A stretch of DNA of 32,000 nucleotides, from positions 30,001 to 62,000 of the forward strand of contig CAYZRF010000005.1 of NCBI GenBank assembly GCA_964480775.1, given 5' to 3'. A program made the position numbers and the translations under genes. This document shows, one piece after another, positions 1,098-32,000 of the stretch; position 1 is the stretch's first letter, and each line of letters begins with the position of its first letter. The notes below the pieces were generated by a model, which was not told the DNA's origin, did no database searches, and saw only the letters and a program-made list of their open reading frames with translations. The stretch comes from an uncultured Nitrososphaerota archaeon. GTDB lineage: Archaea; Korarchaeota; Korarchaeia; Korarchaeales; Korarchaeaceae.

Positions 1098-1920
1098 GAG
1101 AGATTTGATAGCCTTAGCTGGTATAATTCTATTGGCTATGTCAATAATAGTTAGTGGCATTTATCTAGGCAAAAATAAGTCAGAAGAATTTGTATTATAC
1201 TGGATATATGACGAATCCATCTCAGACCTAAACAGGTCTGGGGAAGTTGCCATGGCGATGCAGTACATCGGCAGGACTATAAGCATACTATCTCAGGGGA
1301 ACATAGATCCTAGTAAAGGAAACTTCGTACCACTCATGTTATCAAACCTTAGCGCAGAGGAAAGGTCCTCGAACTCTTCTTATCTGGTGCTGATGAGAAA
1401 AGAATCGGGTGGGCCAGAAATTCTCTTGTTTCGAGAAAACTCCACTATAATGATTAAAGGAAGCAATTCTAGCGATTTTTATGCCGCAATAGGCAGGCTA
1501 ATCTTGGCAATGTGGGGAGACTACCTACTTGAGGTTCCTCAGCCAGGAAAGGGAATAGATGTAATACTAGTTGTAGATCCAATAACGGGAGATAAGGCTT
1601 ATGCCAGGTGTTGGCCCCCCAACCTTTCCGAACAGAGAGCAATGAGTGTAGAAATAACTTATCCCGATGGTAGTCCTGCTGATTTAGAATTAATTCCTAG
1701 CATATTATTGAATGGATACTACATCGGAGCTAAGAAAGAAGTGGCGGGCCCGGCGGGACTTGAACCCGCGACCTACGGCTTAGAAGGCCGTCGCTCTATC
1801 CAAACTGAGCTACGGGCCCGATTCTTGGATTTGCAGAACTCGGCACCTAATACTGTAGGATTTTGCTTATATAAAGCCTTTAGTGAAGAATGGGTTGTAT
1901 GGACAAGGGTGATGATTTGA
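1090..1920 (+). CDS. Hypothetical signal-anchored, N-x-S/T-rich extracellular protein; 3' end uncertain because the frame runs antisense through tRNA-Arg
   Basis: A TTG start overlaps the upstream stop by 8 nt. The N-terminus has RR followed by a 20-residue hydrophobic helix (LIALAGIILLAMSIIVSGIYL). Several sequons are present (NKS, NRS, NLS, NSS, NST). There is no in-frame stop until 1920, so the last ~60 codons are antisense to the tRNA and the next promoter. Confidence 0.5.
   Translation: MVRRDLIALAGIILLAMSIIVSGIYLGKNKSEEFVLYWIYDESISDLNRSGEVAMAMQYIGRTISILSQGNIDPSKGNFVPLMLSNLSAEERSSNSSYLVLMRKESGGPEILLFRENSTIMIKGSNSSDFYAAIGRLILAMWGDYLLEVPQPGKGIDVILVVDPITGDKAYARCWPPNLSEQRAMSVEITYPDGSPADLELIPSILLNGYYIGAKKEVAGPAGLEPATYGLEGRRSIQTELRARFLDLQNSAPNTVGFCLYKAFSEEWVVWTRVMI
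1731..1741 (-). terminator. Pyrimidine/T-rich tract directly 3' of tRNA-Arg
   Basis: The minus strand reads C-TTCTTTCTTA immediately after the encoded CCA. Archaeal termination typically uses T-rich tracts. Confidence 0.3.
1742..1819 (-). tRNA. tRNA-Arg (anticodon UCU), 78 nt, CCA encoded
   Basis: The reverse complement folds by hand into a perfect cloverleaf. Acceptor GGGCCCG/CGGGCCC; D stem GCUC/GAGC; anticodon stem ACGGC/GCCGU with loop CUUCUAA; variable loop AGGUC; T stem GCGGG/CCCGC with loop UUCAAGU; discriminator G; CCA. Confidence 0.95.
1867..1874. promoter_or_regulatory. Palindromic TATA box TTATATAA between tRNA-Arg and the 713-aa surface-protein gene
   Basis: It lies 16-25 nt upstream of the ATGs at 1890 and 1899, which fits a leaderless or near-leaderless transcript. 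It is also ~50 nt upstream of the tRNA 5' end on the other strand. Confidence 0.4.
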
Positions 1921-4031
1921 ACTCAAAAATTTCCATTCTTTTAGCATTTGTTTTGTTTCTTTCATGGATAAACCCTTCTATGACAATTTCATCCCCAGAT
2001 CAAGTCCTTTATGAATGGAGGGGGATATACATCCCTAACAACTCACGCTTTGATGTTGGACCTTATGAGCTTGAGGCTAAAACAACCGAGGAGGGATCCT
2101 TTACTCTTAAGATATGGCTCGGATACACCATCGTTGGCATGATATCTAAGGCAATTGGAGAGCAGAGGCAAGTTTTGTATAAAACAATTAAGGAAAATGG
2201 CCAACAAGTCTTTAGAGTTGCTCTCTTCCTTAATAGATCAAATCCTGAAAAGCTGTATGTAGAGATATATGATTGCGTTTTCTCTCCACCAGGCGGTTTG
2301 GAAATACAAATTTCCCCCTCTGGAACTTTAGAATTTGAAGAAGGATCGCAGCAAATAGTTGTGAACGTAACTGTTATCAACACTGGCACGACAACATCAC
2401 AACAATCGTACCTGACTTGTAATATGGCAAAGGTGGAGGGCAACGGAACCTACAATCTGCTTTACGTAACGGGGATACCTTCTAATCCAAAGAACATAAC
2501 AGTCTCTCCCATTCCAAAGGGAGAGAATACAACTTTTGAATATCATTTCTTCTTCGATCCTGGTGGAAATAGATACGGAAAGTTTGTCGTTAATTTTGCG
2601 CTTAATTACTATATGAACTTCAAATACAATGAGACAGAAAGCTCTAGCACGCTCAAAGTTTATGATTATTATCCAGAGGGATATAAGGTCACTGAAACAG
2701 CAGAACTCACCGTAAAAATTGGAGAAAAGTTCAAATTAGCTGGTAATCCAGATCTACGAATTACTCTGGCTAAAAACGCGACACTAGTTTATCCGAGAGG
2801 AAGCGTTGAGTTCAGATTCTCAGTGAGGAACGAAGGGAATGGAAGTGCATATGGCGTAAAAATTTGGGTAAAGGTTGATCCACCATCTGAGATCCAATTT
2901 TTAGCTCCAAGCCAGCTTGGAAGAATCTTAAGCGGATCGCTAACTGAACCAATAACGTTAGTTCAGAAGTTTCAGAACGGTACCGTAGTTGAATATCCCT
3001 TGCCTCCGAATGGTTATACACAGGATGTTGTCTTTGTGGTGAAAGTACCAGACTATCCTATAGTAGGTAATGCAGCGTATAAAGTCACCATATCAGTTGA
3101 GTGGGATGACTTGGCTGGAAGACACTTTAACAGGACGGCTGAAGAAGGCTTTACTGTGATAGAACCAGGTAGAACTGAGCTGATTGTGACAAAGGAGGTT
3201 ACTCCCCTTGTTGTACCGGTAAACGGCACTTTGAGTGTGACGATAACTATAAGAAACGATGGAGAGGAGGCAGCGAGAAACATAGAAATCTCAGATATAT
3301 ACCCAGAACAGTTCTTCGAGCTTGTCAGCGGAGAAACTACTTTCTCAAGGTCAATTCTAAGAGCAGGAGAAACGGTAACATTTTCATACATATTAAGGGC
3401 TAAGATGGAGGGAAGAGCCCCTATTGACAGAGCAATAGTCGAGTACATTGATGAGACGGGCTCTCCAAGACATACACAAAGCAACCCAGGAGGAGTGGTT
3501 AACATAGTTATGCCATCCATAAAATATGAGATTAAGGACAGGCCTGAGCCATATGAGATCGTAGGATCCTACGTAGTGTACAGAGTTTCAGTAAGAAATG
3601 AGGGTAGTGGCGTAGCCAGAAACATAGAGATAATAGTGAAGTTACCTGATACGTTAATGATCGTCTCGGTGGGAGAGGGCTGTGACATAGAGGAAACATC
3701 AAACATAGTAAAGTTCAAGGTTTCGGAATTACCTCCTAACGAGGAGAAAGAACTCTACCTAGAGTTAAGACCTTTGACTACTGGTAGATATAACATAACT
3801 GTGACGGGAGCAACGTATTACTCACCAGACGGGGGCACGAAATACACATTTTCCATTCCCGAGGTAGAGTTCAGGGCAATGAAACCTTTGGCTGTGAGAG
3901 TAATGCTTACGGTTGTTCTTGTAGCGACCGTAGTAATAGTGGCTGTTCTCGTTGTTGCCATTACTGTGGGAATAAGAATAGGAAAGCCCAAACCCAGTAT
4001 TAGAAGGCTGGGACGCAAGGGTTTCAGGTGA
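1890..4031 (+). CDS. Large surface protein: signal peptide, multiple CARDB/DUF11-like domains, C-terminal TM anchor
   Basis: Signal-like N-terminus KISILLAFVLFLSWINPSMTISS. Repeats include GSVEFRFSVRNEGNGSAYGVKIWV, GTLSVTITIRNDGEEAARNIEISDIYP and SYVVYRVSVRNEGSGVARNIEIIV. There are 13 N-x-S/T sequons. The C-terminal helix is VMLTVVLVATVVIVAVLVVAITVGI, followed by KPKPSIRRLGRKGFR. ATG 1899 is an alternative start. Confidence 0.8.
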   Translation: MGCMDKGDDLNSKISILLAFVLFLSWINPSMTISSPDQVLYEWRGIYIPNNSRFDVGPYELEAKTTEEGSFTLKIWLGYTIVGMISKAIGEQRQVLYKTIKENGQQVFRVALFLNRSNPEKLYVEIYDCVFSPPGGLEIQISPSGTLEFEEGSQQIVVNVTVINTGTTTSQQSYLTCNMAKVEGNGTYNLLYVTGIPSNPKNITVSPIPKGENTTFEYHFFFDPGGNRYGKFVVNFALNYYMNFKYNETESSSTLKVYDYYPEGYKVTETAELTVKIGEKFKLAGNPDLRITLAKNATLVYPRGSVEFRFSVRNEGNGSAYGVKIWVKVDPPSEIQFLAPSQLGRILSGSLTEPITLVQKFQNGTVVEYPLPPNGYTQDVVFVVKVPDYPIVGNAAYKVTISVEWDDLAGRHFNRTAEEGFTVIEPGRTELIVTKEVTPLVVPVNGTLSVTITIRNDGEEAARNIEISDIYPEQFFELVSGETTFSRSILRAGETVTFSYILRAKMEGRAPIDRAIVEYIDETGSPRHTQSNPGGVVNIVMPSIKYEIKDRPEPYEIVGSYVVYRVSVRNEGSGVARNIEIIVKLPDTLMIVSVGEGCDIEETSNIVKFKVSELPPNEEKELYLELRPLTTGRYNITVTGATYYSPDGGTKYTFSIPEVEFRAMKPLAVRVMLTVVLVATVVIVAVLVVAITVGIRIGKPKPSIRRLGRKGFR

Positions 4032-4081: not shown

Positions 4082-4396
4082 ATGGGGCTAGAATACATAT
4101 ACGCTGCCCTCTTGCTTCACGAGCTCAACAAGCCGGTGGAAGAAGAGACAATTAAAAAGGTATTAGAGGCAGCTGGGGCCACGCCAGATCCAGCAAGAGC
4201 TAAGGTTCTGGTTGAAAGCCTTTCGGAAGTGAACATTGAGGAAGTATTAAAGCAAGCAGTTGCAGCTCCTGTAGCGGCCGCACCAGCGCCTGCAGCAAAG
4301 GCAGAGGAAGAGAAACCCAAGGAAGAAAAGAAGAAAGAGGAGAAGAAAGAAGAAGAGGAGGCAGCCCTGGCTGGGCTCAGCGCTCTCTTTGGATAA
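4082..4396 (+). CDS. rpl12: 50S ribosomal stalk protein P1 (L12e/aL12)
   Basis: [14 protein letters not shown]... N-terminal domain, an Ala/Pro hinge, a Lys/Glu-rich tail and the conserved C-terminus [14 protein letters not shown]. Confidence 0.92.
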
Positions 4397-4441
4397 GAGA
4401 GGGGCTCCCCTATGGGGGAAATTAAAAGAAAGCCCCTCTCT
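4396..4441 (+). promoter_or_regulatory. Nested stem-loop enclosing the alaS Shine-Dalgarno sequence and start codon
   Basis: A perfect 11-bp inverted repeat, AGAGAGGGGCT (4396-4406) and AGCCCCTCTCT (4431-4441). An inner hairpin CCCC-TAT-GGGG (4407-4417) contains ATG 4412-4414. Confidence 0.5.
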
Positions 4442-7174
4442 CTAGAGTTTTTCAAGGAGAGAGGGTTTGTCAGAAAGAAATGTCCTGTTTGCGGCGAATA
4501 CTTCTGGACTCTAGATCCTGAGAGAGAACTTTGTGGAGAGGCTCCTTGCGAACCATATTCTTTCATAGGAAAGGGTCTCACTAGAAAATTCTCTATTAAT
4601 GAAGGGAGAGAAGCTTTTCTCTCATTCATGGAAAGAAGAGGACACACGAGAGTGCACAGGTACCCAGTGCTGGCAAAATGGAGAGACGACCTATTTCTAA
4701 CTAGCGCCTCGATAGTAGATTTCCAGCCTTATGTTACAGCAGGACTTGTACCTCCGCCAGCAAATCCTCTAACGATCTCTCAGCCCTGCATAAGGCTGAA
4801 GGATATGGATAAAGTGGGACCGACTATGGGTAGACATCTCACAATATTCGAGATGATGGCCCATCATGCATTCAACACCCCAAAGCAGAAAATATACTGG
4901 ATAAACAGAACAGTGGAACTCTTTCATGAATATGCTACAGAAGTTCTAGGAGTAAAAGACGAGGAAATTACCTATAAAGAAGGTTTCTGGGAAGGAGGAG
5001 GAAACGCTGGGCCCGACTTAGAACCTATGATAGCTGGATTAGAGGTAGCCACCCTCGTCTTCATGAACCTCAAAGAAACGCCTTCTGGCTATGTGGAGAT
5101 GGAGAATAAGATAGTTGATACGGGGTACGGGCTGGAAAGAATAGTCTGGCTCTCTCAAGGTACACCTTCAGCATTTGAGGCCGTATATGAGGGACTCGTT
5201 GACGTTTTCTTGAACCGTCTTGGAGTAAGAAAGCCAGATAGAAGACTCTTGGAGGACTACTCCAAACTCTCATCTCTCATGATTGGAATAGAGAAAGGCC
5301 TTAGGAGAGAGGAAATAAGGAAGAAAATAGCAAGAAAGCTGGATATGGATATCTTTGACCTAGAAAAAGAAATGTCTGGCTTGGAAAAGGTTTTTGCTGT
5401 TTTGGATCACACAAAAGCGATAACGTTTATGCTTGCTGATGGGGCTGTCCCTTCCAATGTCCAAGAAGGTTACTTATGCAGACTTCTCATAAGAAGAAGT
5501 CTGAGGATTTTATCATCCTTAGGAGTTGAGATTCCCCTCTCTGAGCTAGTTGCATATCAGGTTGATCATTGGGGAAGAAGTTTCCCCGAACTCCTAGAGG
5601 CAAGAGAAAGGATTCTTGAAATAGTCGACCTAGAGGAGAATAGATACCATAAGACGATAGAAAAAGGAATCTCTCTCATATCAAGGATGGCTAAGAAATT
5701 GAAGAAAGAGAAAAAAGGCAAGATATCTTCTGAGACTTTGATAGAATTATATGACTCTCATGGCATACCTCCTGAAATAGTTTCTAAGGTTTCTGCTGAT
5801 TTTGGCATCTCTGTAGAGATCCCTGAGAACTTCTACGAGATGGTGGCAGCACGACATGAAAGTGCGCAGCCAAAACCACCTGAAATATCGCCTTATGTAG
5901 ACAAAGTAGATACTTATCCTAAAACGGAATTCCTTTATTATGAGGAGCCATACAGGCTGGAGTTTAAGGCTAAAGTGCTTGGAGTAGTTGACGATGCAGT
6001 TATCCTAGATAAAACAGCGTTCTATCCTGAAGGAGGAGGTCAGCCATCTGATATTGGTCACCTAATTGTAAATGGTGAAAAGTACGAAGTTACCTTCGTA
6101 GAAAAAGTGAAGGATAGGATACTCCACCACATAAGAAACCTTAATCCAACCTCGCTTAAACCAGGAGTTATAGTTGTAGGAACCATACAGAAAGAGAGGA
6201 GGCTATCACTTATGAGACACCACACAGCAACACACGTAATCTTAGCATCAGCTAAGCGAGTTCTGGGAGACCATGTATGGCAATGGGGTGCTCAAAAAGG
6301 AGAAGAGGAGAGCAGGCTTGACATAAGTCACTACAAGTCTATATCGAGAGAGGAGCTTAGGAGAATTGAACAAATTGCAAACGACGCTGTAATGAAGAAT
6401 ATGGAAGTAAAGACTTTCTGGCTCCCTAGGCATGAAGCTGAGCGTAGATATGGCTTTGTTATATATCAAGGAGGCTTAGTTCCTGGTACAACTATAAGAA
6501 TCGTTGAGATAGATGATTTTAATGTTCAAGCGTGTGGAGGAACCCATGTTCAAAGAACGGGTGAGATAGGCCCAATAAAAATCTGGAGATCGAAGAGGAT
6601 ACAAGATGGCGTTGTTAGGTTGGAGTTCAGTGCTGGTGCGTCTGCTGTAAAGAAGCTGCTTCTCTACTATGACGAACTAAGAGAACTCTCAGAAATCTTT
6701 GCAAAACCGCCTGATCAAGTTGTGGAGGCTGTGAAAGAGGTAATAGACGAAGTTAAAGCCCTTAGGAAGGAGCTTGAAGCAGAGAGGATGGCTAGACTAA
6801 GAACAGATCTAGATAGCGCTCTCTCAAGCGCGGAAAAGGTAAAAGGAATCAGGATAGCTTGGGTTCTCACAAAGATTAGCGACCAAGATACGATAGTAAA
6901 GGCACTTGATGAGGTCATCAAAACAAGAGAAGAAAGCGTAATTCTTGTAGTATCATCTGGTGCTAAGAGAGTGGTATCTTTGATGATTGGAGAAAAGGCC
7001 ATTAATGCTGGAGTACACGCTGGCAACATCTTGAGGAAAGTGGTTAAGGAACTTGGAGGCGGAGGCGGTGGATCACCAAAGCTAGGGAGAGGATCAGTCC
7101 CTCCATCAATCGAGCCAGAAGAGGTAATAAAAAGGATAATAAGAGAAGTGAGGGAAGCTTTAGGTGCAGGTTAA
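4412..7174 (+). CDS. alaS: Alanine--tRNA ligase
   Basis: A 920-aa archaeal AlaRS. It has the N-terminal zinc motif KKCPVCGEYFW, a class II core, the editing-domain motif HTATHV...CGGTHV and a C-terminal DHHA1-like GGGGGS region. Confidence 0.97.
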   Translation: MGEIKRKPLSLEFFKERGFVRKKCPVCGEYFWTLDPERELCGEAPCEPYSFIGKGLTRKFSINEGREAFLSFMERRGHTRVHRYPVLAKWRDDLFLTSASIVDFQPYVTAGLVPPPANPLTISQPCIRLKDMDKVGPTMGRHLTIFEMMAHHAFNTPKQKIYWINRTVELFHEYATEVLGVKDEEITYKEGFWEGGGNAGPDLEPMIAGLEVATLVFMNLKETPSGYVEMENKIVDTGYGLERIVWLSQGTPSAFEAVYEGLVDVFLNRLGVRKPDRRLLEDYSKLSSLMIGIEKGLRREEIRKKIARKLDMDIFDLEKEMSGLEKVFAVLDHTKAITFMLADGAVPSNVQEGYLCRLLIRRSLRILSSLGVEIPLSELVAYQVDHWGRSFPELLEARERILEIVDLEENRYHKTIEKGISLISRMAKKLKKEKKGKISSETLIELYDSHGIPPEIVSKVSADFGISVEIPENFYEMVAARHESAQPKPPEISPYVDKVDTYPKTEFLYYEEPYRLEFKAKVLGVVDDAVILDKTAFYPEGGGQPSDIGHLIVNGEKYEVTFVEKVKDRILHHIRNLNPTSLKPGVIVVGTIQKERRLSLMRHHTATHVILASAKRVLGDHVWQWGAQKGEEESRLDISHYKSISREELRRIEQIANDAVMKNMEVKTFWLPRHEAERRYGFVIYQGGLVPGTTIRIVEIDDFNVQACGGTHVQRTGEIGPIKIWRSKRIQDGVVRLEFSAGASAVKKLLLYYDELRELSEIFAKPPDQVVEAVKEVIDEVKALRKELEAERMARLRTDLDSALSSAEKVKGIRIAWVLTKISDQDTIVKALDEVIKTREESVILVVSSGAKRVVSLMIGEKAINAGVHAGNILRKVVKELGGGGGGSPKLGRGSVPPSIEPEEVIKRIIREVREALGAG

Positions 7175-7826
7175 GATTATCCTCTTAGCAGCAAGGGAGT
7201 TAGCGGCTTTAGCCTACTCTGGATATCCCGAAAGACCTTCCTTCTCTCTTGTATCTGCAAAATACTCACTTTCAGATAAAGATCTTTTTGCCCTTAAGAA
7301 GGTGGTGAGGTGGCCAGAAGAAGCCATTTCTAGCTCGATAAAAAGGATTCCTCCAGAGATGGCTAAAGGAAAGGAAATAAGAGTTGATGGCTACAACGTG
7401 TTAGGGACGATTCAAGCATTTATCGAAAAAGAACCAATTTTTCTCTCCAATGATGGATTCGTAAGAGATATTACTTCCGCGTATAAGTCCTTTCATCAAA
7501 GAAAAATCAGTGATAAAGCAATAGAACTTCTCTTAAGAGAAATAGAGAAGATAAAGCCGAGAGAAGTTCTTATACTCTTTGATCAGCCGATAAGTAAGAG
7601 CGGCCAACTGTCATATAGGGTAAGAAAAATGCTCTCCTCGACAAACCTCAACGGAGATGCAAGAACTGAAAGAACTGTTGATACTGAAGTTTCTAATGGA
7701 GAAATAGCAGCAAGTAGTGATGTTGCCGTCATAAAAAGAGCAAAAGCCGTTATTGATCTACCAAGTCTTGTAGGGATGAGTCTGGAAGTAAGACCCTTGA
7801 GGTTTTGGAAAGATTATGAGTTTTAG
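7164..7826 (+). CDS. DUF434 plus YacP-like NYN/PIN-type nuclease-domain protein
   Basis: A GTG start overlaps the alaS stop by 11 nt. The C-terminal half shows the NYN acidic pattern IRVDGYNV ... LILFDQP ... DTEVS ... AASSDVAV. Confidence 0.7.
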   Translation: MQVKIILLAARELAALAYSGYPERPSFSLVSAKYSLSDKDLFALKKVVRWPEEAISSSIKRIPPEMAKGKEIRVDGYNVLGTIQAFIEKEPIFLSNDGFVRDITSAYKSFHQRKISDKAIELLLREIEKIKPREVLILFDQPISKSGQLSYRVRKMLSSTNLNGDARTERTVDTEVSNGEIAASSDVAVIKRAKAVIDLPSLVGMSLEVRPLRFWKDYEF

Positions 7827-7843
7827 GATCACACACTTGACCT

Positions 7844-8881
7844 ATGCGAATTCTTCCGAGAACGGTTAAATGGGAAAAAGGAAGGGTCATCCTTATAGAC
7901 CAGACTAAACTACCCGAAGACCTCACATTTGTGGAGTGCGAGGATATCGAATGCGTTGCCAACGCGATAGAGGAGATGAAGGTTAGAGGAGCTCCTGCAA
8001 TAGGAGCTACGGCCGCCTATGGATTGGCCCTCGTTGCTTACCATTCAGAAGCGAAAGACGAAGGTAAATTTCTTTTAGAATTGGAAAAGGCCGCTGAAAG
8101 GTTGAGACGGACGAGACCTACTGCGGTAAACCTATTTTGGGCCATAGAAAGGGTAATGAAGGCAGCTAAAGCTGAGAAAAGCCTTGAAAAGATGAAGAAA
8201 AAGGTTTTAGAAGAGGCTCACAAGATAGGAGAGGAGGACATAGAGTCAAACAGGAGAATAGGAGAATATGGCCAAGAACTTATTGAAGATGGACAGACTA
8301 TCATGACAATTTGTAATGCAGGAAGTCTTGCAACCGTACACCTCGGAACAGTCTTGGCCCCCATCTACCTTGCTTGGGAAAAGGGTAAGAACATCAGAGT
8401 ATTTGCTCTTGAGACTAGGCCTGTTTTGCAGGGGGCTAGGCTAACTGCATTTGAATTACACTATGCTGGCATACCGGTTACTTTGATAGTAGATGGGGCG
8501 TCTGGATACATAATGAGAGAAGTGGGGGTGGATCTCGTGCTGGTTGGGGCCGACCGGATACTAAGCGACGGAACTGTATACAACAAAATCGGAACATACA
8601 ACTTAGCTATAATAGCAAAGGAACATGGCGTACCTTTCTATTCGGTTGCTCCAACATCGACCTTCGACTTGAAATCCAGTAGAGAGGACGTTGTTATAGA
8701 ACAAAGGGATCCAACAGAAATTAAGGAGATAAAAGGGATTCAAATCGCCCCTCAAAATGTGGATGTATTAAATCCAGCCTTCGACATGACTCCACCAGAG
8801 TACTTAACAGGAATTCTGACCGAAAAGGGGGTTATAAGACCTCCATTTAAGGAGGCGATAGCCAGACTATTTAATCTCTGA
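7844..8881 (+). CDS. mtnA: S-methyl-5-thioribose-1-phosphate isomerase (aIF-2B alpha/beta/delta family, MtnA type)
   Basis: Contains VILIDQTKLP...VRGAPAIGATAAYGLAL and C-terminal GADRI..DGTV.NKIGTY motifs typical of MtnA/aIF-2BI. Confidence 0.85.
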   Translation: MRILPRTVKWEKGRVILIDQTKLPEDLTFVECEDIECVANAIEEMKVRGAPAIGATAAYGLALVAYHSEAKDEGKFLLELEKAAERLRRTRPTAVNLFWAIERVMKAAKAEKSLEKMKKKVLEEAHKIGEEDIESNRRIGEYGQELIEDGQTIMTICNAGSLATVHLGTVLAPIYLAWEKGKNIRVFALETRPVLQGARLTAFELHYAGIPVTLIVDGASGYIMREVGVDLVLVGADRILSDGTVYNKIGTYNLAIIAKEHGVPFYSVAPTSTFDLKSSREDVVIEQRDPTEIKEIKGIQIAPQNVDVLNPAFDMTPPEYLTGILTEKGVIRPPFKEAIARLFNL

Positions 8882-13153: not shown

Positions 13154-13231
13154 TGTTTATCACTCGCCTTGCGTTACGGTTAAGTATTGCTTTGCACATC
13201 CGATAATTACGAAGGGAGTATAGTGATTAAA

Positions 13232-14185
13232 ATGTCTGAAGAAGATTTCGTGGAAGTCCTGAAAGGGCTGCCTGGCGTAGGAAATGTGACGGCAAAAAAG
13301 CTCATTGAAGCAGGTTATGTTACGCTTGAGTCTATAGCTTTGAGCACTCCTGCGGAGCTAGTAGTTAACGCTGGATTGACTGAATCTACAGCTAAGAAGG
13401 TGATAAACTCTGCAAGACAGAAGTTGAGCATTGAGGTAACTACTGCCTACGACTATTATCTCAAGAAAAAGGAAACTTTGAGAATAACTACAGGATCAAA
13501 GAATCTTGATGATCTATTGGGAGGAGGAGTTGAAACGCAATCAATCACCGAGATATATGGGCCCTATGGTTCTGGGAAAACTCAACTGGCCCACCAACTG
13601 GCTGTCACAGTTCAACTTCCAATTGAAAAGGGAGGAATAGATAGAGGATGTCTTTTCATAGACACAGAAGGGACTTTCAGGCCGGAAAGAGTGATGCAGA
13701 TAGCTGAAGCTTTTGATATAGACCCCGGTGAGGCGTTAAAGCGCATACTTTATGCAAGAGCATATACGAGTGATCATCAAATATTAGTTACAGCGAAAGC
13801 AGAAAAGATGCTAAAGAAAGAAAATATAGGTCTGATAGTCGTTGATTCTCTTATAAGCCACTTTAGAGGGGAGTACACTGGAAGAGAAACTCTTGCAGAA
13901 AGACAACAAAAGCTAAACAAGTACATTCACATGCTCTTGAAATATGCTACTGGCTATAATTTAGCTGTTCTTGTTACTAATCAAGTAATGGCGGATCCAA
14001 GCACCTTCTTTGGTGATCCTACAAGACCAACAGGCGGTCATGTGATAGGTCATGGAGTCACAACCAGGCTATACATTAGACGTGGTAAGGAGGGTAGAAG
14101 GGTCATAAAACTTACGAAGAGTCCTTATCTACCAGAAGGATCTGTTGAGATAATGATAACCGACAAAGGCATCGTTGATGTTTAA
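13232..14185 (+). CDS. radA: DNA repair and recombination protein RadA
   Basis: N-terminal HhH (LPGVGNVTAKKLIEAGY), Walker A GPYGSGKTQ, Walker B LIVVDSL and the Rad51/RadA core. I prefer the start at MSEEDF (ATG 13232) over the TTG at 13187. Confidence 0.96.
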   Translation: MSEEDFVEVLKGLPGVGNVTAKKLIEAGYVTLESIALSTPAELVVNAGLTESTAKKVINSARQKLSIEVTTAYDYYLKKKETLRITTGSKNLDDLLGGGVETQSITEIYGPYGSGKTQLAHQLAVTVQLPIEKGGIDRGCLFIDTEGTFRPERVMQIAEAFDIDPGEALKRILYARAYTSDHQILVTAKAEKMLKKENIGLIVVDSLISHFRGEYTGRETLAERQQKLNKYIHMLLKYATGYNLAVLVTNQVMADPSTFFGDPTRPTGGHVIGHGVTTRLYIRRGKEGRRVIKLTKSPYLPEGSVEIMITDKGIVDV

Positions 14186-14437
14186 ATGGGTGGTGAACAG
14201 CTTCTGCTGCATGACGACTGGATAGAATTTGAAGGAAAAAAGATAAGGCTGAAAAAGGGCATGAGAGTCTCTCATTTAATGAGAGGTCTGAGAGTATCCC
14301 CTCTAACCCACATAGCTATAGTAAATGGAAGACCAGTACCTGAAGACTACCCCTTGGAGCCCAAAGACTCCGTAGAATTTCTCATGTTCACAGTTCACAA
14401 AGAAATGGGTGGCGTTCAGCGTGAGAAGACCTTGTGA
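14186..14437 (+). CDS. ThiS/MoaD/TtuB-like beta-grasp (ubiquitin-fold) small protein with an internal Gly-Gly
   Basis: The ATG directly follows the radA TAA. The pattern ...LRVSPLTHIAIVNGRPVPEDYPLEPKDSVEFLMF..MGG resembles sulfur-carrier ThiS/TtuB proteins. Seven residues (VQREKTL) follow the GG. The 3' end overlaps the next gene by 29 nt. Confidence 0.6.
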   Translation: MGGEQLLLHDDWIEFEGKKIRLKKGMRVSHLMRGLRVSPLTHIAIVNGRPVPEDYPLEPKDSVEFLMFTVHKEMGGVQREKTL

Positions 14438-15368
14438 TCGCTGTGGTGAGAGAGAAGCGGTCATAAGAATCGAAAGCCTGAATGAGAGCATATGCGATAA
14501 GTGCTTATCGGTTAGGATTTGGAGAAGGGTTAAATCAGTTTTGGATCACGAGATTGAAGACGGAGATGTCATAGTAAGTGCTCTATCTGGAGGAAAAGAC
14601 AGCTCGCTCATGTTATATTACTTGTGGAAATACAAGAAGGAGTTGGACAGGGACTTTGATATAGTTGCTGTGACAATAGATGAGGGGACATGTTATAGAG
14701 CAGAATCGATATCTAAGGCAAAAGAGTTTACATCTAGGCTTGGGGTTAAGCACAGAATAGTGAAAATGAGCGAAATATTTGCCTTTTCAATACCACAAGT
14801 ACAAATTCTACTTTCAAAAACCAAAATAAAAAGAGATCTGTGCACTTATTGTGGAGTATTTAGGAGACAAGCGCTGAACATTGTAGCTAGGGAAGAGGGA
14901 GCAACAAAAGTAGCAACCGGGCACAATTTGGACGATATGACTCAGACACTATTCATGAACTTAATAAGAGGAGATATAAGCGCAATGGCACGCCTTTTTT
15001 CCAAAGCTCCGCTTACAACGAAACTAATTCCAAGAATAAGACCATTAACCAAAGTTCCAGAGAAAGAAGTAGCGGTTCAGGCCTTATTGCTTGGAATTCC
15101 TGCTCATTTCGGCAAATGTCCAATGGTATCAGGAATGAGAGTTAGAGTAAGAAGGCTTATAGACAGCTTTGAAGAGCAAAGCCCCGGATTTAAGGAAAGA
15201 GCATTCGACTTTATTGAGAGACTCGTTAAAAAGGCCATTCCAGAACTTACACGTAACTTCGAACTGAAATATTGTAAGCTTTGTGGAGAACCAACGACTC
15301 AGGAACTGTGCAAAGTCTGTCAGTTTAAACAAGAGCTAGAAACAGAGTTAGCAACTACAGTTGGCTAA
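14409..15368 (+). CDS. tRNA 2-thiolation PP-loop ATPase (TtuA / NcsA-Ncs6 family)
   Basis: PP-loop SGGKDSS. N- and C-terminal zinc fingers (CDRCG...CDKC and CKLCG...CKVC). Fe-S ligand candidates CTYCG and GKCP. Start is GTG 14409, with GTG 14421 as an alternative. Confidence 0.85.
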   Translation: MAFSVRRPCDRCGEREAVIRIESLNESICDKCLSVRIWRRVKSVLDHEIEDGDVIVSALSGGKDSSLMLYYLWKYKKELDRDFDIVAVTIDEGTCYRAESISKAKEFTSRLGVKHRIVKMSEIFAFSIPQVQILLSKTKIKRDLCTYCGVFRRQALNIVAREEGATKVATGHNLDDMTQTLFMNLIRGDISAMARLFSKAPLTTKLIPRIRPLTKVPEKEVAVQALLLGIPAHFGKCPMVSGMRVRVRRLIDSFEEQSPGFKERAFDFIERLVKKAIPELTRNFELKYCKLCGEPTTQELCKVCQFKQELETELATTVG

Positions 15369-16742: not shown

Positions 16743-17495
16743 ATGGGATGGAACAAAATAGTCGAACTTATCGATGTGAAAGATCCCGTACCGATAGCTA
16801 TAGCTGGCTATCCAGGGATGGGAAACATTGGAATTCAGGTTGTGTCATATCTAGCCGATAAACTCGATGCAGAGCTTACAGCCAAAATATACTCAGAATA
16901 TCTTATGTTGTCGAGCAATGTAGCTGGGATAATAATAAACAAGGACGGAACATTCAAGTTGCCTGCAATTGAAATTAGGTTAGCAAAGAAAGGGAAAAAC
17001 AAGTTGTTTTTAGTAAGCTCTCCAATTCAACCAGTTCCCTGGGGGCAGCTTGAGGTTTCATCTCTTCTTTTTGACTATTTAAAGAAAAAAGGTGTTGAGA
17101 TCATCTTTATAATAGCTGGATTTGTTGATAGAACCCTTTACAACACGGTAATAACCTTTGGAGACGAGGAATGGACCAAGAAATTAGAAGAACTGGGATC
17201 AATTAGAAACGAAACAATAAGATCAGTAATCGGTCTTGCAGGAGCGAATTTAACGTTAGCGAGGTTGAGAGGGCTTAGATATGTCTTTATCTCTGGAGTA
17301 GCAGCAGATTACCTACCAGATCCGAAGCCAGCTCAGAATATCTTGAATAAACTTAACTCCATCATGAGCTTAGGTATTGACATGGAAGAGATGGGAAAGA
17401 GAGTTAAAGAGTTTGAAAGCAAGCTACAACCAAAAGAAGAGTCAGAGACGAGCAAGGATGAAAAAGAGAACGCGTCTATGAACTATTTGGGGTGA
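16743..17495 (+). CDS. PAC2-family proteasome assembly chaperone (PbaA/PbaB-like), paralogue 1
   Basis: IAIAGYPGMGNIG..., QPVPWGQ and an acidic C-terminal tail. It is paralogous to 20266-21036. Confidence 0.85.
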   Translation: MGWNKIVELIDVKDPVPIAIAGYPGMGNIGIQVVSYLADKLDAELTAKIYSEYLMLSSNVAGIIINKDGTFKLPAIEIRLAKKGKNKLFLVSSPIQPVPWGQLEVSSLLFDYLKKKGVEIIFIIAGFVDRTLYNTVITFGDEEWTKKLEELGSIRNETIRSVIGLAGANLTLARLRGLRYVFISGVAADYLPDPKPAQNILNKLNSIMSLGIDMEEMGKRVKEFESKLQPKEESETSKDEKENASMNYLG

Positions 17496-20265: not shown

Positions 20266-21036
20266 TTGTCCTTGATCGAACTAATAGAACACAAAAAAGT
20301 CCAACCAGATAGCCCCGTGCTCATTCAAGGACTGCCGGGGCTAGGGTTAGTTGGGAAAATCGCTGTTCAATATCTGATTGATCAGTATGACCCGCCTCTA
20401 ATAGCAAAGATAGTTAGTGACCTGATACCCCTCCCCGATGGCTCGGCTGGTGTTAGAGTAGAAGAAGAGGATCTGAAACTAGCTTCCATAGACCTATACT
20501 ATCTTAAAAGAGAAGGTTCAAAAAGAGACCTGCTTCTAATGACTTCAGAAGCACAACCAGTTCCCTGGGGTCAATATAGAATCGCTGAAAGGGTCATTAA
20601 ATATGTTAGGGCCCTTGATGTCGGCCTAGTTCTTGCTTTGGGCGGGTATGTTCCAGGATCTCTTAACGTAAAAGGAGTCTTTGCATGTACAAATGATTCA
20701 GATCTAATGAAAGAGCTGGAATCGTATGGGGTTAAGAGGTTAAGAGGAGGATACGTAACAGGAGCCTGTGGCATAATAGTAGGTGTGGCCCATGTTTATG
20801 GAATAAAAAGCGCCTGTTTGCTAGGAACAACAGGCGGATCATTTCCAGATCCCGGAGCTTCTAAGAATGTCCTGCTTGTTGTTGACAAAATAGTGGGAGG
20901 ACAGACTGATTTCTCTGAAATGGATAAAATGATCGAGAAAGAGCGTGAACTTATGGAAGAACTCAGACGCGCAGCAAGAGAAGTAGCTGAAGCAGAAACT
21001 CCTAAAGAGGAAACTTCTCTCCCTTACCACATGTAA
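20266..21036 (+). CDS. PAC2-family proteasome assembly chaperone (PbaA/PbaB-like), paralogue 2
   Basis: VLIQGLPGLGLVG..., QPVPWGQ and an acidic/helical tail ending LPYHM. TTG start. Confidence 0.85.
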   Translation: MSLIELIEHKKVQPDSPVLIQGLPGLGLVGKIAVQYLIDQYDPPLIAKIVSDLIPLPDGSAGVRVEEEDLKLASIDLYYLKREGSKRDLLLMTSEAQPVPWGQYRIAERVIKYVRALDVGLVLALGGYVPGSLNVKGVFACTNDSDLMKELESYGVKRLRGGYVTGACGIIVGVAHVYGIKSACLLGTTGGSFPDPGASKNVLLVVDKIVGGQTDFSEMDKMIEKERELMEELRRAAREVAEAETPKEETSLPYHM

Positions 21037-27711: not shown

Positions 27712-27865
27712 AAGAACGTAAGTTCTTGTCTAAGCAACTTTCGATCTAAAAATATAAGTGAACTTTTTATATCTCTCCGCTTCATGATTTTCTGATTCGT
27801 TGGGAGGATGACTAAAGGAAACGAAAATCGTTTTCTCCTGACGTTAACGGGAGGATTTGTTAGAT

Positions 27866-29137
27866 ATGAGTTCGCTAAAAGTGAAACCACTTGGTGCTAT
27901 TGGAGAAGTTGGAAGAAGCGCCATTCTCCTAGAAACCAAGGGTAAAAGAATATTACTTGACTATGGAATAAAGCTAAGGCCGAAACAGAGCCCGCTTTTC
28001 CCTCCAGAAGTCGATAATGTAGATGCTGTGCTGTTAACACATGCACATTTGGATCATTCAGGAGCACTGCCCCTGCTTTTTAGGGGCAAGAATTCACCTA
28101 AAATCTATGGTCTTGACATAACCAGGGACTTTGTAGAACTTCTGCTCTATGATTCCATAAAGGTAGCAAAGAAGAGAGGATATACGATAGATTATGGTCC
28201 TCAAGAAATTAAAAAGCTAATGAGGAACTATAGACCAATAGAATATGGAGTTCCTTTCAAGATAGGATCTGTCGAGGTTATACCATTTGATTCTGGACAT
28301 ATCCCTGGTAGTGCCATGTTTTATGTTAGAACAAATGGGACATCTCTCCTATATACGGGGGACTTCAAGCTTAGAAATACCAGGCTCTCTCGTGGAGCTG
28401 AAAGAGAGTTACCAGAGGTAGACCTGTTGATCACGGAGTGTACTTATTCTCAAAGGGAACATCCAAGTAGAAAAGGACAGGAGAAACTCCTAAGGGAGGT
28501 AGTTAGAGATACTATCAATAGGGGGGGCCTAGCAATAATCGCTGGCTTTGCTATAGCAAGACTTAACGAGATTGCAATGATCTTGTCATCTAGTGGGATA
28601 AAAAACCTATTCCTTGATGGTATGGCGCGAACTGGAACGGAAATTCTGCTTTCATATCCCCATAGACTTAGAGATGATAAAGAGTTTGAGTACTCTTTGA
28701 GAAACCTTAGAATGGTCGGAAACTGGAAATTTAGAGAAAACATCACTAGAAGACCGTCAATTGTTCTAACAACGTCTGGAATGCTTGAAGGTGGGCCCGT
28801 TTACTTTTATCTCGATAGGAGAAGGGAAGACCCTGTGAGTTCGTTAACCCTCACAGGATATCAGATTGAAGGAACGGAAGGCAGAAGATTATTGCAAGAA
28901 GGCGAGATATACATAGATGGAGAAAGAAGAACAATAGAGATGAGAGTAAATCAACTTGACTTCTCCTCACACGTAGGTAGATCTGGTCTATTCGAATTTG
29001 TAAGGACTGTGGATCCAAAACAGGTACTTCCAATTCATGGAGAAGAAACTGAGAAGTTTGGAGAAGAAGTTCAAGAAATAGTGGGTGTAAGCGTTATATC
29101 TCCTTCGCTCGAGGAGGAGATAACAGTCTCAGGGTAA
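27866..29137 (+). CDS. Metallo-beta-lactamase / beta-CASP ribonuclease (aCPSF2-like, no KH domains)
   Basis: HAHLDHSG motif, with DSGH, ECTY and PIHGE motifs downstream. I prefer ATG 27866 because the GGGAGGA SD at 27849-27855 is 10 nt upstream. The track start at 27857 is a TTG. Confidence 0.88.
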   Translation: MSSLKVKPLGAIGEVGRSAILLETKGKRILLDYGIKLRPKQSPLFPPEVDNVDAVLLTHAHLDHSGALPLLFRGKNSPKIYGLDITRDFVELLLYDSIKVAKKRGYTIDYGPQEIKKLMRNYRPIEYGVPFKIGSVEVIPFDSGHIPGSAMFYVRTNGTSLLYTGDFKLRNTRLSRGAERELPEVDLLITECTYSQREHPSRKGQEKLLREVVRDTINRGGLAIIAGFAIARLNEIAMILSSSGIKNLFLDGMARTGTEILLSYPHRLRDDKEFEYSLRNLRMVGNWKFRENITRRPSIVLTTSGMLEGGPVYFYLDRRREDPVSSLTLTGYQIEGTEGRRLLQEGEIYIDGERRTIEMRVNQLDFSSHVGRSGLFEFVRTVDPKQVLPIHGEETEKFGEEVQEIVGVSVISPSLEEEITVSG

Positions 29138-30232
29138 TTAAGATTTGTTTTTCACAATAGGACGCCTAGAGATCTCAAAGGGAGCATCCAAAGGAGCCAT
29201 CTCAATTATCTCACCCTCTAACTCCTTTGACAGTAGTAGAGATTTGTTTTCAAAAACAATGTAGGGCGGAACTAAGAGCTCTTTACCTCTTAATTCAAAA
29301 GAATACAAGCCCATTTTCTCTAAGAAGCTTTTGAATTCTAGTAATTTGCTGAGGTTCCCTCGTATCACACCGAACATTATAGTGCCTTGGTCAGTTATGC
29401 GTTGATAGGGCTTTGCAACGTTTTTAGCCCTTCTTCTCCATCTATTAAGAACCTGTACTTCTTTTACCTCCGCAGAGCAGAAATAACCAAGAAGCCCAGT
29501 CTCCCTTTCTATATAATCTAAAACCCTCTTTGCAGTTTCTTTGCTTCCAGAAACAGCGACTCCGCTATTAATTCTAACACCATAGCCCCGAGATAAAAGA
29601 ATGGTTCTATTTCCCTCGCTAAATTCCAATTCATTGATATTTAAGAAATGAGCCCCAATAGAATCAAGGAACTTCGTAAGCTTCATTAATCTCTTTTCGT
29701 ACACTCTTTCTGGTATCGATGGCATCTCAGCTCCAACCCTAAAGTTGAAGTTTAGAGCATGTCTAATTTTTTCCCAGTCCTTCCTTTGCCAAGTATGAAA
29801 TCTAATCTCATTTAAACCAGCAGATTCTAATTTCCCCAAACTTTTAGGGTTAATACCCGCTGAATTTGTGTAAAGGTGCACATCGAATTTCTTCCCGAAG
29901 TTTTCTTTCAAAACCCGTATGTACCTACAAACCCTGTCTATAACTAAACTTGGTTCTCCCCCAGTTATTCCGGCTCCTTCGGCATCTATGAGCCTTGCTT
30001 CTCTTAGAAAATCTGATTCATCATGAACTCTTATCTCATCTGCAAAAACCCAGTCCTTTCCTCTTCTCTCAGAGGAAATCGTGCAATAAAAACAGGTCGA
30101 ATACCGCGGGCATAGTCCTGTGGCAAATAAGACGAGTTTACCCCCTCTCCAACAAATTTCGCAGGAGGGGCTTTTACCTCTTACCATTAATGAACCATAA
30201 GGGAGTTCAATCATCAGTTTATTTTCCTCCAA
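29138..30232 (-). CDS. Radical SAM-like protein with a non-canonical CX5CX2C cluster motif
   Basis: GLCPRYSTCFYCT (CX5CX2C), preceded by CEICW. GGEPS (the SAM-binding GGE motif) is present and the layout looks TIM-barrel-like. The TTG at 30232 abuts the upstream stop. ATG 30214, 11 nt after a GGAGG, is an alternative start. Confidence 0.8.
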   Translation of the reverse strand: MEENKLMIELPYGSLMVRGKSPSCEICWRGGKLVLFATGLCPRYSTCFYCTISSERRGKDWVFADEIRVHDESDFLREARLIDAEGAGITGGEPSLVIDRVCRYIRVLKENFGKKFDVHLYTNSAGINPKSLGKLESAGLNEIRFHTWQRKDWEKIRHALNFNFRVGAEMPSIPERVYEKRLMKLTKFLDSIGAHFLNINELEFSEGNRTILLSRGYGVRINSGVAVSGSKETAKRVLDYIERETGLLGYFCSAEVKEVQVLNRWRRRAKNVAKPYQRITDQGTIMFGVIRGNLSKLLEFKSFLEKMGLYSFELRGKELLVPPYIVFENKSLLLSKELEGEIIEMAPLDAPFEISRRPIVKNKS

Positions 30233-30472
30233 TTACAGCCTTTTAACGCGAAGAATCCAATAATTATCTTTTCTGTCCGAGGTTACAGACGCCCAGCTTA
30301 CTCTCTCACCCCATTCCCTTGCCTGTTCAACCGTCTCCCTATCATCAGTTAAAACCAGAAGAAATTCCTTTGATTTCAAGGATTTTGCTACCTTAGCTAG
30401 AGTAATTATTGTGCCTGGAAAGCTCTTGCCCCTTAAGTCTATCTTTTTAACAAAGCTTTTCTTTCCGTTCAC
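30233..30472 (-). CDS. TusA/SirA-fold protein lacking the catalytic cysteine
   Basis: IDLRGKSFPGTIITLAKVAKSL...LLVLTDD aligns by eye with E. coli TusA LDALGLRCPEPVMMVRKTV...LLIIADD. The Cys is replaced by Phe and there is no Cys anywhere in the 79 aa. The GTG start overlaps the upstream TGA (GTGA). Confidence 0.75.
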   Translation of the reverse strand: MNGKKSFVKKIDLRGKSFPGTIITLAKVAKSLKSKEFLLVLTDDRETVEQAREWGERVSWASVTSDRKDNYWILRVKRL

Positions 30473-30999
30473 TTGCTCTTCACCCTATACCCCAATACAG
30501 CACTGATAAGCCGTTCGTCTGCTCTTTCAGAAACTGGTTTTACCATAAGATAGCCGTCCTCACCATCGCTGTAATACTTAGGCATGATGCCCAAAACCCT
30601 ATAATCTAGCTTTTTGTATAGGGAAATGGCTGGTTCATTTGAAATCCTAACTTCTAGATAAACTAGATCTACGCCATAGGTATTAACTAATCCCGCTTCA
30701 GCGCCTTTCATGAGAGCTGTTGCTATCCCCTGCCTTCTGTGCTTCTTCTCTACAGCTATAGAGAGGACATGCCCGAGCTTGATAGGACTAAATCTATAGT
30801 ACTTCTCCTCAACCCTACACATAACATAGCCCACTATTTTGCCTTCAGATTCGGCCACAAGAAAAGCCTCTGGCCAATGTGTGTAGTTTTCCAAGAAGAA
30901 AAACGAAGGGTAGTTCTCAGGAAGAAAGACCCAGTTAAGCTTAACAACGTTGTCTAGATCTTTAGGATTGAACCTTCTAATGATGTACTGTTTCTGCAT
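30469..30999 (-). CDS. ard1: N-alpha-acetyltransferase, Ard1/RimI type (GNAT)
   Basis: Collinear with Sulfolobus Ard1 as I recall it: LPENYP.FFF, VGYVM, GHV.SIAV....RRQGIATALM, YLEVR.SN.PAI.LY.KL.Y and YY.DGEDGYLM. I prefer ATG 30999, preceded by GAGGTGGGG. The longer track ORF adds a hydrophobic, non-homologous 45 aa. Confidence 0.88.
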   Translation of the reverse strand: MQKQYIIRRFNPKDLDNVVKLNWVFLPENYPSFFFLENYTHWPEAFLVAESEGKIVGYVMCRVEEKYYRFSPIKLGHVLSIAVEKKHRRQGIATALMKGAEAGLVNTYGVDLVYLEVRISNEPAISLYKKLDYRVLGIMPKYYSDGEDGYLMVKPVSERADERLISAVLGYRVKSK

Positions 31000-31170
31000 C
31001 GCCCCACCTCGATCAGAAAACCTTACATCAAACAAAGTTTTAAACGCCACCCAAACGATCACAACGGGGTAAAACGAAAAGTGTTTCCGACACCCTATAG
31101 CTTCATCATAGATGTTGTAAGCAGAAACTTTCATGTGGTTGACGTTACTGAAACGCCAACTGGGCTTGAG

Positions 31171-32000
31171 ATGCTGGTAGATAAAGTAGATCCAGATAAG
31201 TCAAGAGAGCGCTTTAGAGCAGTAGCTGAGGAACTCATTCCTCATGGGTTAATGCCTAAACTCCTCCCAGGAGAGCCTTACCTTCGGCTTATAGTGTTTC
31301 CCGCCAAAATTCCATCTAAAAGATCAAAAACAATTTATCTTGTTATGTTGCTGGCTACCATCTGCACCGTCACTTTCTCTGGCTATCTTTATAGTAAAAC
31401 AGCAGTAGAGCTGTTGAATAAAGTTGGCATAACTCCTAGCATAAATATCATATACAGTGCTCTTATGTTCACAATTTCAGTTTTTTTCACACTTGGGACA
31501 CATGAGTTCGGTCACATGGTAGCCACTAGGTTGAGAGGTGGTGATTGGGACCCGCCACTGTTTATTCCAGGGGGACCACCTCTTGGTACTTTCGGAGCTA
31601 TAATCTTTGGTCGTAGGATTCCATTAAACAGAGATGAACTTTTCGACATGGGATTATCAGGTCCTCTAACTGGCCTTATAGCATCAATCCCAGTTTGTTA
31701 TTTTGGTCTTAAATCATCCATACCTCTTGATCCGTCTCTGATAAGTGCCTTAGAAAAAGAAGGAGCTAGTCCTTTGTGGTGGGAACAACCCATCTTTTCT
31801 TATATGTTCAAGTTAGCTAAAGTGTCCTCACCCATTTATTTAAGCCCTGTTGCACTTGCAGGCTGGGTTATTCTTACAATAACATTCCTAAATCTTATGC
31901 CAATCTCTCAACTCGATGGAGGGCATGTATGCTATGCCTTCTTTCCCGATGAAAAGAAAAGACAGCTAATAGCGTTTGCACTAATATCCCTCTCTTTCAT
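31171..32000 (+). CDS. Site-2 protease family (M50) membrane metalloprotease, 3'-partial
   Basis: Absent from the ORF track because it has no stop in the window. Hand translation gives ...FFTLGTHEFGHMVATRL... (HExxH) and ...FLNLMPISQLDGGH... (the LDG motif) with several hydrophobic segments. GTG 31135 is an alternative start. Confidence 0.85.
   Translation, partial: MLVDKVDPDKSRERFRAVAEELIPHGLMPKLLPGEPYLRLIVFPAKIPSKRSKTIYLVMLLATICTVTFSGYLYSKTAVELLNKVGITPSINIIYSALMFTISVFFTLGTHEFGHMVATRLRGGDWDPPLFIPGGPPLGTFGAIIFGRRIPLNRDELFDMGLSGPLTGLIASIPVCYFGLKSSIPLDPSLISALEKEGASPLWWEQPIFSYMFKLAKVSSPIYLSPVALAGWVILTITFLNLMPISQLDGGHVCYAFFPDEKKRQLIAFALISLSF

Follow-up and report, generated by a model that had tools for sequence, protein, structure and literature searches.

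In a stretch of 32,000 nucleotides (nt) from an uncultured archaeon of the Korarchaeia (contig CAYZRF010000005.1 of assembly GCA_964480775.1, positions 30,001 to 62,000 of the forward strand; hereafter the window, with positions counted from its first letter), the table of open reading frames (ORFs) and the sequence itself revealed an operon of three minus-strand genes. In order of transcription, these encode an Ard1-type N-terminal acetyltransferase (NAT), a small protein that has the TusA fold and no cysteine (the TusA-like protein), and a radical S-adenosylmethionine (SAM) protein. Our interpretation is that the operon is specific to Korarchaeia and combines a TusA-fold protein that would serve as a binding module outside sulfur metabolism with the orthologue of an orphan radical-SAM family. 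We give this interpretation, taken as a whole, an even chance of being correct. Our confidence is high in its descriptive part and low in the choice of the enzyme with which the TusA-like protein would work. Nothing in these results overturns current understanding.

A TusA-fold family without the catalytic cysteine

The middle gene of the operon (30233 to 30472, minus strand) starts with GTG and encodes 79 amino acids (aa). Its product matches the Pfam TusA profile (PF01206) at profile positions 1-70 of 70 with 41.2 bits (cut-off 28.6; E = 1.5e-10), and hhalign aligned it with Escherichia coli TusA over 41 columns (E = 7e-5), with F18 (codon 30421-30419) opposite the catalytic Cys19. The protein contains no Cys and has an isoelectric point (pI) of 10.1. 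Based on these sequence and fold matches, we regard it as a true homologue of the TusA family. This agrees with an earlier reading of the window (hereafter the original prediction), which had described a TusA homologue with Phe at the Cys site and no Cys elsewhere. The TusA-like protein shares the domain and a size of ~75-80 aa with the TusA/SirA/YhhP family (PF01206; E. coli TusA, PDB 1DCJ and 3LVJ), and its DxxG..P and DD-x-x-T motifs line up with those of E. coli TusA. It differs from that family in the missing Cys of the CPxP motif, in a pI of ~10 instead of ~5, and in a gene context of NAT, S-adenosylhomocysteine (SAH) hydrolase (AhcY) and radical-SAM genes, with no IscS, DsrE or TusBCD genes nearby. 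The wider set of sulfur-relay partner genes (IscS, DsrE, TusBCD, YedE, rhodanese) likewise gave no match in the window operon or in the 15 korarchaeal neighbourhoods.

Searched exhaustively with a profile, a set of 1.84 billion representative proteins yielded only 21 TusA-like matches at E ≤ 1e-3. In a profile search of a 5.8-billion-protein set, the family stood out as ~18 clusters scoring 95-120 bits, followed by a drop to 44 bits. The catalytic Cys is absent from every TusA-like member above this gap, and the two matches below it carry CPWP and CPFT. In place of this Cys, members have F, L, A, S, G, P or D; the change from Cys to Phe for which the original prediction had proposed a conservation check is general as a loss of Cys and variable as a gain of Phe. 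Since the whole family lacks this Cys and the position varies freely, and since persulfide carriage is chemically impossible without Cys, we consider a persulfide carrier role of the TusA-like protein to be excluded as far as its sequence can tell, as the original prediction had concluded.

Members that are only ~30% identical to one another nevertheless keep D12, L13, R14, G15, P19, A26, D44, W54, R57 and W72 invariant or nearly so, and we read the TusA-like protein as being under constraint yet unable to relay sulfur. All members for which pI was computed (16 of 16) are basic, with values of 9.4-11.4, compared with 5.2-5.3 for the Cys-bearing protein P0148 and for E. coli TusA. This shift in charge suggests that the TusA-like protein may bind nucleic acid or an acidic partner. 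Members with organism names are from Korarchaeota or a 'Thermoproteota archaeon', and GenBank/nr names one of them 'sulfurtransferase TusA family protein'. The TusA-like proteins represent a discrete and novel variation on a known fold family, misannotated as a sulfurtransferase though none of its members can carry sulfur. If confirmed, it would be a clear case of a sulfur-carrier fold that has become a probable binding module.

Gene boundaries and the acetyltransferase

The three genes are closely packed, and the features reported in the original prediction (three minus-strand genes, the GTGA overlap, the GGAGG and the motif coordinates) were all present. The stop codon of the NAT gene (TGA, 30471-30469) overlaps the start codon of the TusA-like gene (GTG, 30472-30470), which reads as GTGA in the sequence. 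Downstream, the TusA-like stop codon (TAA, 30235-30233) is directly followed by a TTG (30232-30230), and a GGAGG occupies 30230-30226. The original prediction had the radical-SAM gene abut the TusA-like gene at this TTG. The TTG is indeed at 30232, and an ATG lies at 30214, 11 nt past the GGAGG. We take this ATG as the true start of the radical-SAM gene because its closest homologues begin with MIELPYGS and because the database protein P0001, which is 100% identical to the window protein, is 358 aa long. The TusA-like gene is therefore separated from the radical-SAM gene by 18 nt and not by 0. For the NAT gene (30469 to 30999, minus strand; 176 aa), the first of the operon, a longer ORF extends to 31134. 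We place the start at ATG 30999 because the longer ORF would run into the divergent M50 peptidase gene (starting at 31081) and because NAT relatives are 175-199 aa long; these relatives also start at the equivalent ATG.

The NAT protein itself, which has the GNAT fold, is an ordinary archaeal Ard1/NAT. It matches Pfam Acetyltransf_1 with 72.9 bits, it aligns over its full length with Sulfolobus solfataricus SSO0209/ssArd1 (E = 3e-39) and human Naa10 (~1e-30) in the PDB, and RRQGIA corresponds to the acetyl-CoA motif of GNAT proteins (Q/R-x-x-G-x-G/A). Compared with archaeal NAT/Ard1 (SSO0209) and Naa10, its sole oddity is that a TusA-fold gene follows in translational coupling, an association seen in Korarchaeia only.

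Gene order in Korarchaeia

We compared 15 korarchaeal arrangements, the window included. The order NAT-TusA-radical SAM is found in the window, L002/3, L004, L005 and L088. In seven arrangements (L006, L007, L008, L009, L010, L011 and L090), the order is NAT-TusA-AhcY-radical SAM. L084/85 has NAT-TusA-AhcY without the radical-SAM gene and with the beta-CASP gene directly next, and L086/87 reads NAT-TusA-AhcY-P1-AlaRS with no radical-SAM gene within 5 kb; in L087 the latter gene may sit elsewhere on the same contig, as the longest contig on record for the radical-SAM match P0028 equals that of L087 in length. L089, a metagenomic contig of 1 kb, carries overlapping TusA-like and radical-SAM genes with no NAT gene in the 470 bp upstream, and is the sole arrangement found without NAT. 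Overall, NAT adjoins the TusA-like gene in 14 of the 15 arrangements. The TusA-like and radical-SAM genes belong to a common operon in 13/15 and are directly adjacent in 6/15; the original prediction had asked for their adjacency to be checked in related genomes, and what recurs in most of these is the cluster and not the immediate contact.

The 4-nt overlap between the NAT stop and the TusA-like start persists across genomes in which the TusA-like proteins are only ~30% identical. The flanks are likewise constant in Korarchaeia, with the M50 peptidase gene divergent and the beta-CASP gene convergent. AhcY, identified with Pfam, is present in nine of the 15 arrangements; it directly follows the TusA-like gene in L006-L011, L084-L087 and L090 (e.g., L006:3724-4995), often with a 4-nt overlap. 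A search for an SAH hydrolase gene found none at the window locus or elsewhere in the 32 kb. We also observed that a cluster of ribosomal P1, AlaRS, DUF5616 and IF-2B-family genes is located at 4082-8881 of the window, and that in L086/87 P1-AlaRS-DUF5616 directly follows NAT-TusA-AhcY. Given the different placement of P1-AlaRS-DUF5616 in the window and in L086/87, blocks have been shuffled within Korarchaeia.

An uncharacterised archaeal radical-SAM family

The third gene (29138 to 30214, minus strand; alternative TTG at 30232) encodes a 358-aa protein, assigned by its homology to P0001, an AlphaFold2 (AF2) model and Foldseek. Its match to Pfam Radical_SAM (PF04055) reached 28.5 bits, slightly below the cut-off of 29.5, so that of the two Pfam checks proposed in the original prediction the one for PF01206 exceeded its cut-off and this one fell short. 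Membership of the superfamily is secured despite the sub-threshold Pfam score because the AF2 model (33 sequences; predicted local distance difference test (pLDDT) 95.2) matches radical-SAM cores in Foldseek. The best match of the whole model was the pyruvate formate-lyase activating enzyme (PFL-AE, PDB 3C8F; E = 1.6e-6). Viperin, BioB, LipA and HydE came next, with a template modelling (TM) score of ~0.43 throughout and a probability of 1.00 for PFL-AE, viperin, BioB and LipA; the matches consisted exclusively of generic radical-SAM cores. The core fold is shared with PFL-AE (3C8F), viperin (6Q2P), BioB and LipA, the TM score of the best match being ~0.43 when normalised to the query and 0.61 when normalised to the target. 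The window protein differs from these PFL-AE-type cores by an N-terminal CxxC, C252 and a ferredoxin-like C-terminal domain of 95 aa.

The three-Cys motif of radical-SAM enzymes appears in a spacing variant, C41-X5-C47-F-Y-C50 (CPRYSTCFYC, codons at 30083 to 30112, minus strand), in which the third Cys follows an aromatic residue, and C24-x-x-C27 (codons at 30152 to 30163, minus strand) lies upstream of it; both had been pointed out in the original prediction. Of the TGGEP SAM-binding motif, T90, G91, G92 and P94 are kept in 199 of 199 family members. Among the same 199 members, C41, C50 and C252 (codon 29477 to 29479, minus strand) are conserved in 199, C47 in 197, and C24 and C27 in 195 each, and charged residues on the barrel strands are likewise conserved. 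We expect that C41, C47 and C50 would bind the SAM-cleaving [4Fe-4S] cluster and that this site tolerates a two-residue insertion in its loop. From their conservation, C24, C27 and C252 are candidates for a second metal or Fe-S site, which they probably form together.

The C-terminal 95 residues (29138 to 29437, minus strand) fold in the AF2 model of the domain alone (pLDDT 91.2) as a ferredoxin-like alpha/beta domain, and this domain is modelled as capping the barrel. When the domain alone was compared with the PDB, Foldseek gave nothing significant, the best E value being 0.05 (folds of an EF-G domain, UreE, PII and Cas2). An RNA-binding or TusA-like fold was considered for this domain and rejected, as the matches were to generic ferredoxin-like folds and none was significant.

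Homologues of the radical-SAM protein number in the hundreds, are full length and share 37-52% identity. They occur in Korarchaeota, Thermococcales, Methanosarcina, Thermoplasmata, Hadarchaeales, Altiarchaeota, DPANN, Asgard, Bathyarchaeia and Thermofilum, and a scan of species-representative genomes yielded at least 572 confirmed archaeal matches. The orthologue in Thermococcus kodakarensis is BAD85955.1, which by accession arithmetic should correspond to TK1766. Sources name the members merely 'radical SAM protein' or 'PFL-activating-enzyme-like'. Relatives carry a precomputed match to PF26257 (DUF8061), and none is on record for the window protein or for most korarchaeal members. With members of the DUF8061 family such as BAD85955.1, the window protein shares the six conserved Cys, GGEP, NxNELEFSE and full-length homology; a fellow member, CAB49982.1 of Pyrococcus abyssi, is named 'pyruvate formate-lyase activating enzyme related protein'. 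The korarchaeal members differ from this family by a two-residue insertion and by operon partners that are specific to Korarchaeia.

A sequence search of the PDB with the radical-SAM protein returned no relative, and no NCBIfam equivalog was found for the window protein or among the families listed for 32 relatives. The NCBIfam matches of the family (HxsC, PqqE, MoaA and PFLA) were all sub-threshold. A literature search on T. kodakarensis BAD85955.1/TK1766, COG2108, DUF8061/PF26257 and korarchaeal TusA-like proteins found nothing relevant, and a paper on NFACT and TusA makes no mention of a NAT-TusA-radical-SAM system (PMC4075521). We assign the protein, as did the original prediction, to an uncharacterised family, here an archaeal one within a known superfamily. 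This family spans anaerobic archaea, including DPANN with their small genomes, and the orthologue in the genetically tractable T. kodakarensis makes its role directly testable.

Two candidate identities were rejected. For a PFL-AE-type activase, the TIGR02493/PFLA matches were sub-threshold in 20 of 33 members (best E = 6e-9), and no gene for a glycyl-radical enzyme was present in the neighbourhoods. For RaSEA, the beta-subunit of archaeosine synthase, the window protein had no model match at E ≤ 1, and none was among the 25 of 45 families listed for 33 members; further, NCBI does use the product name RaSEA, the members are generically named, and no ArcS-like neighbour was seen.

Spacing of the cluster motif

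Among 83 radical-SAM loci of this family, 69 have CX3CX2C, 12 have CX5CX2C and two have CX5CX3C, and CX3CX2C is also found in 76 of 120 database proteins of the family. CX5CX2C characterises all korarchaeal-type members and two Woesearchaeota loci, and CX5CX3C occurs in Asgard members (Jord-, Frey- and Sif-archaeal). Because the spacing varies within a single family and is CX3CX2C in 69/83 loci, we interpret CX5CX2C as a lineage-specific insertion of two residues in a loop. The original prediction had associated this motif with HmdB, the maturase of the [Fe]-hydrogenase cofactor, and that association did not hold up, the insertion being confined to Korarchaeia and the two Woesearchaeota loci. 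HmdB belongs to a BioB/HydE-like group and occurs in methanogens. It does have CX5CX2C, and QueE tolerates CX14CX2C (PMC4389238). The spacing of the cluster Cys is all that the window protein has in common with HmdB; its own family mostly has CX3CX2C, and a sequence relationship to HmdB was rejected, with no HmdB match of the window protein at E ≤ 1 and none among the 25 of 45 families listed for the 33 members.

Radical-SAM neighbourhoods outside Korarchaeia

At none of ~70 loci examined outside Korarchaeia did the radical-SAM gene have a TusA-like or NAT gene within 5 kb. A layout of M50 peptidase, another gene and radical-SAM gene recurs in Jordarchaeia and Culexmicrobium, where an NTP_transf_2 gene replaces NAT-TusA. 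This neighbour, a nucleotidyltransferase of 237 aa, adjoins the radical-SAM gene in Asgard (Jordarchaeia and Sifarchaeia), Bathyarchaeia and Culexmicrobium (L014, L017, L026 and L052; e.g., L014:4253-4966), with a divergent M50 gene upstream in L014 and L052. When neighbourhoods were clustered across phyla, the contexts proved lineage-dependent and gave no consistent indication of what the radical-SAM family does.

Several of these contexts are worth recording. Thermoplasmata (L021, L049, L056, L068, L076, L082 and others) have a conserved string of genes for a TtuA/NcsA-like 2-thiouridine synthetase, RadB, the radical-SAM protein, L7Ae, S28e and L24e. The window has, at 13187-15368, a gene for RadA (Rad51 family) followed by one for a PP-loop ATPase (ATP_bind_3, possibly a tRNA thiolase of the TtuA/NcsA type), a combination that recalls the TtuA-RadB pairing beside the radical-SAM gene in Thermoplasmata. 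In Thermococci (L001:5548-5991, L013 and L018), a gene for a conserved 147-aa protein with no Pfam match lies between NFACT (RqcH-like) and radical-SAM genes; its overlap with the NFACT gene is 4 nt long, and 9 nt separate its end from the radical-SAM gene. Three loci labelled as bacterial (L054, Bacteroides salyersiae; L064, Eggerthellaceae; L081, Anaerovoracaceae) share neighbours with the Methanomethylophilaceae locus L078, and their contigs look like archaeal contigs from gut metagenomes that were mis-binned as bacterial.

Proposed role of the TusA-like protein and alternatives

We propose that the operon is a housekeeping unit specific to Korarchaeia, in the order NAT, TusA-like, (AhcY) and radical SAM, with AhcY missing at the window locus. 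Its TusA-fold protein would have abandoned sulfur chemistry, kept its scaffold (DLRG..P, the DD/T-V-E helix and two invariant Trp) and turned strongly basic. It is now most probably a small, non-catalytic module that binds RNA, the ribosome or a protein and works with an enzyme of the operon. Because the NAT-TusA adjacency is the most constant one, NAT would be the marginally likelier partner, with the radical-SAM enzyme as the alternative. Several observations weigh against this proposal. The overlap of the TusA-like and radical-SAM genes without NAT in L089 favours the radical-SAM enzyme as the partner, the CX5 insertion is a korarchaeal innovation just as the TusA-like gene is, so that a connection between the two is conceivable, and the basic pI is suggestive of nucleic-acid binding rather than diagnostic of it.

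A more specific form of this proposal is that the TusA-like protein arose in Korarchaeia as an accessory subunit that would anchor NAT, perhaps together with the radical-SAM enzyme, on the ribosome or on RNA, and would connect N-terminal acetylation with a radical-SAM modification. We regard this as a long shot. If true, it would provide an archaeal, non-homologous counterpart of the auxiliary subunits of eukaryotic NATs and point to a target in the translation machinery for a widespread archaeal radical-SAM family. As an accessory factor of NAT, the TusA-like protein would be, to our knowledge, the first known auxiliary subunit of an archaeal N-terminal acetyltransferase.

Among the alternatives, the one that survives best is that the three genes form a conserved synteny block with no common function, in which the TusA-like protein acts independently (e.g., as a free RNA-binding or regulatory protein) and the tight spacing is that of a compact genome. 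The korarchaeal flanks fit such a block in remaining unchanged, M50 divergent and beta-CASP convergent, whichever genes lie inside, as does the M50-to-radical-SAM layout of Jordarchaeia and Culexmicrobium, where a nucleotidyltransferase gene stands in for NAT-TusA; the neighbours of the radical-SAM gene are, moreover, wholly different between phyla. We still consider this explanation rather unlikely, given that the 4-nt overlaps of NAT and TusA-like genes outlast the divergence of the TusA-like proteins to ~30% identity and that, in the 15 arrangements, the TusA-like gene is always accompanied by at least one operon enzyme.

The original prediction had put forward another explanation, in which the radical-SAM enzyme has the cysteine-less TusA-fold protein as its dedicated subunit for substrate binding or as an adaptor, and a translation-related target would account for the co-expression of NAT. 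This is possible and has no better support than an accessory role with NAT, and we find it unlikely overall; the translation-related target of the operon is pure conjecture. Hundreds of species have the enzyme without the partner, the cluster motif is not special, AhcY comes in between, and two lineages have lost the link, all of which weaken the adaptor explanation. Specifically, the family has at least 572 archaeal matches and no TusA-like gene within 5 kb at any of the ~70 loci outside Korarchaeia, L084/85 and L086/87 retain NAT-TusA-AhcY at a locus that lacks the radical-SAM gene, AhcY separates the two genes in seven arrangements, and the two Woesearchaeota loci have CX5CX2C with no TusA-like neighbour. 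These points stand against the shared operon in 13 of 15 arrangements with direct adjacency in six, the overlapping pair retained without an upstream NAT in L089, and the restriction to Korarchaeia of both the TusA-like gene and the CX5 loop insertion beside the cluster.

That the TusA-like gene is a decaying, functionless relic of a sulfur relay is very improbable: the loss of the catalytic Cys and the lack of constraint on the residue in its place would fit a relic, but the reading frame is intact at every locus, eleven (near-)invariant positions persist among members ~30% identical, all members computed share the shift of pI to 9.4-11.4, and the gene is kept in all korarchaeal loci examined.

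Other features of the window

Upstream of the NAT gene, the 81-bp divergent spacer that separates it from the M50 gene contains a putative archaeal promoter and ribosome-binding region (31002 to 31044, minus strand). As read from the sequence, it comprises TTTAAAA at 31044-31038, 39-45 nt upstream of the NAT ATG, and GAGGTGGGG at 31010-31002, just before the ATG, which makes it a plausible candidate. The M50 gene (31081 to 32000, plus strand), for a peptidase of the site-2 protease type, continues beyond the window; it was identified by tblastn with the M50 protein of L002 (80% identity, E = 9e-168), for which Pfam Peptidase_M50 is on record. On the other side, the convergent gene (27857 to 29137, plus strand) encodes a beta-CASP/metallo-beta-lactamase RNase-like protein (Pfam Lactamase_B_2, Beta-Casp and RMMBL). 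Its stop codon (ending at 29137) and that of the radical-SAM gene (29138, minus strand) abut with 0 nt between them (29135-29140), so that each transcript must terminate inside the opposite gene.

Elsewhere in the window, three consecutive genes for probable surface proteins occupy 15-4031; two of them have DUF11, CARDB and TRAP-beta-like domains, and the middle one encodes 276 aa with no Pfam match. Two paralogues of the PAC2 family (proteasome assembly chaperone-like) are located 3 kb apart at 16743-17495 and 20266-21036, and between them are genes for a PadR regulator, a DUF354 protein and a pyridine-nucleotide disulfide oxidoreductase.

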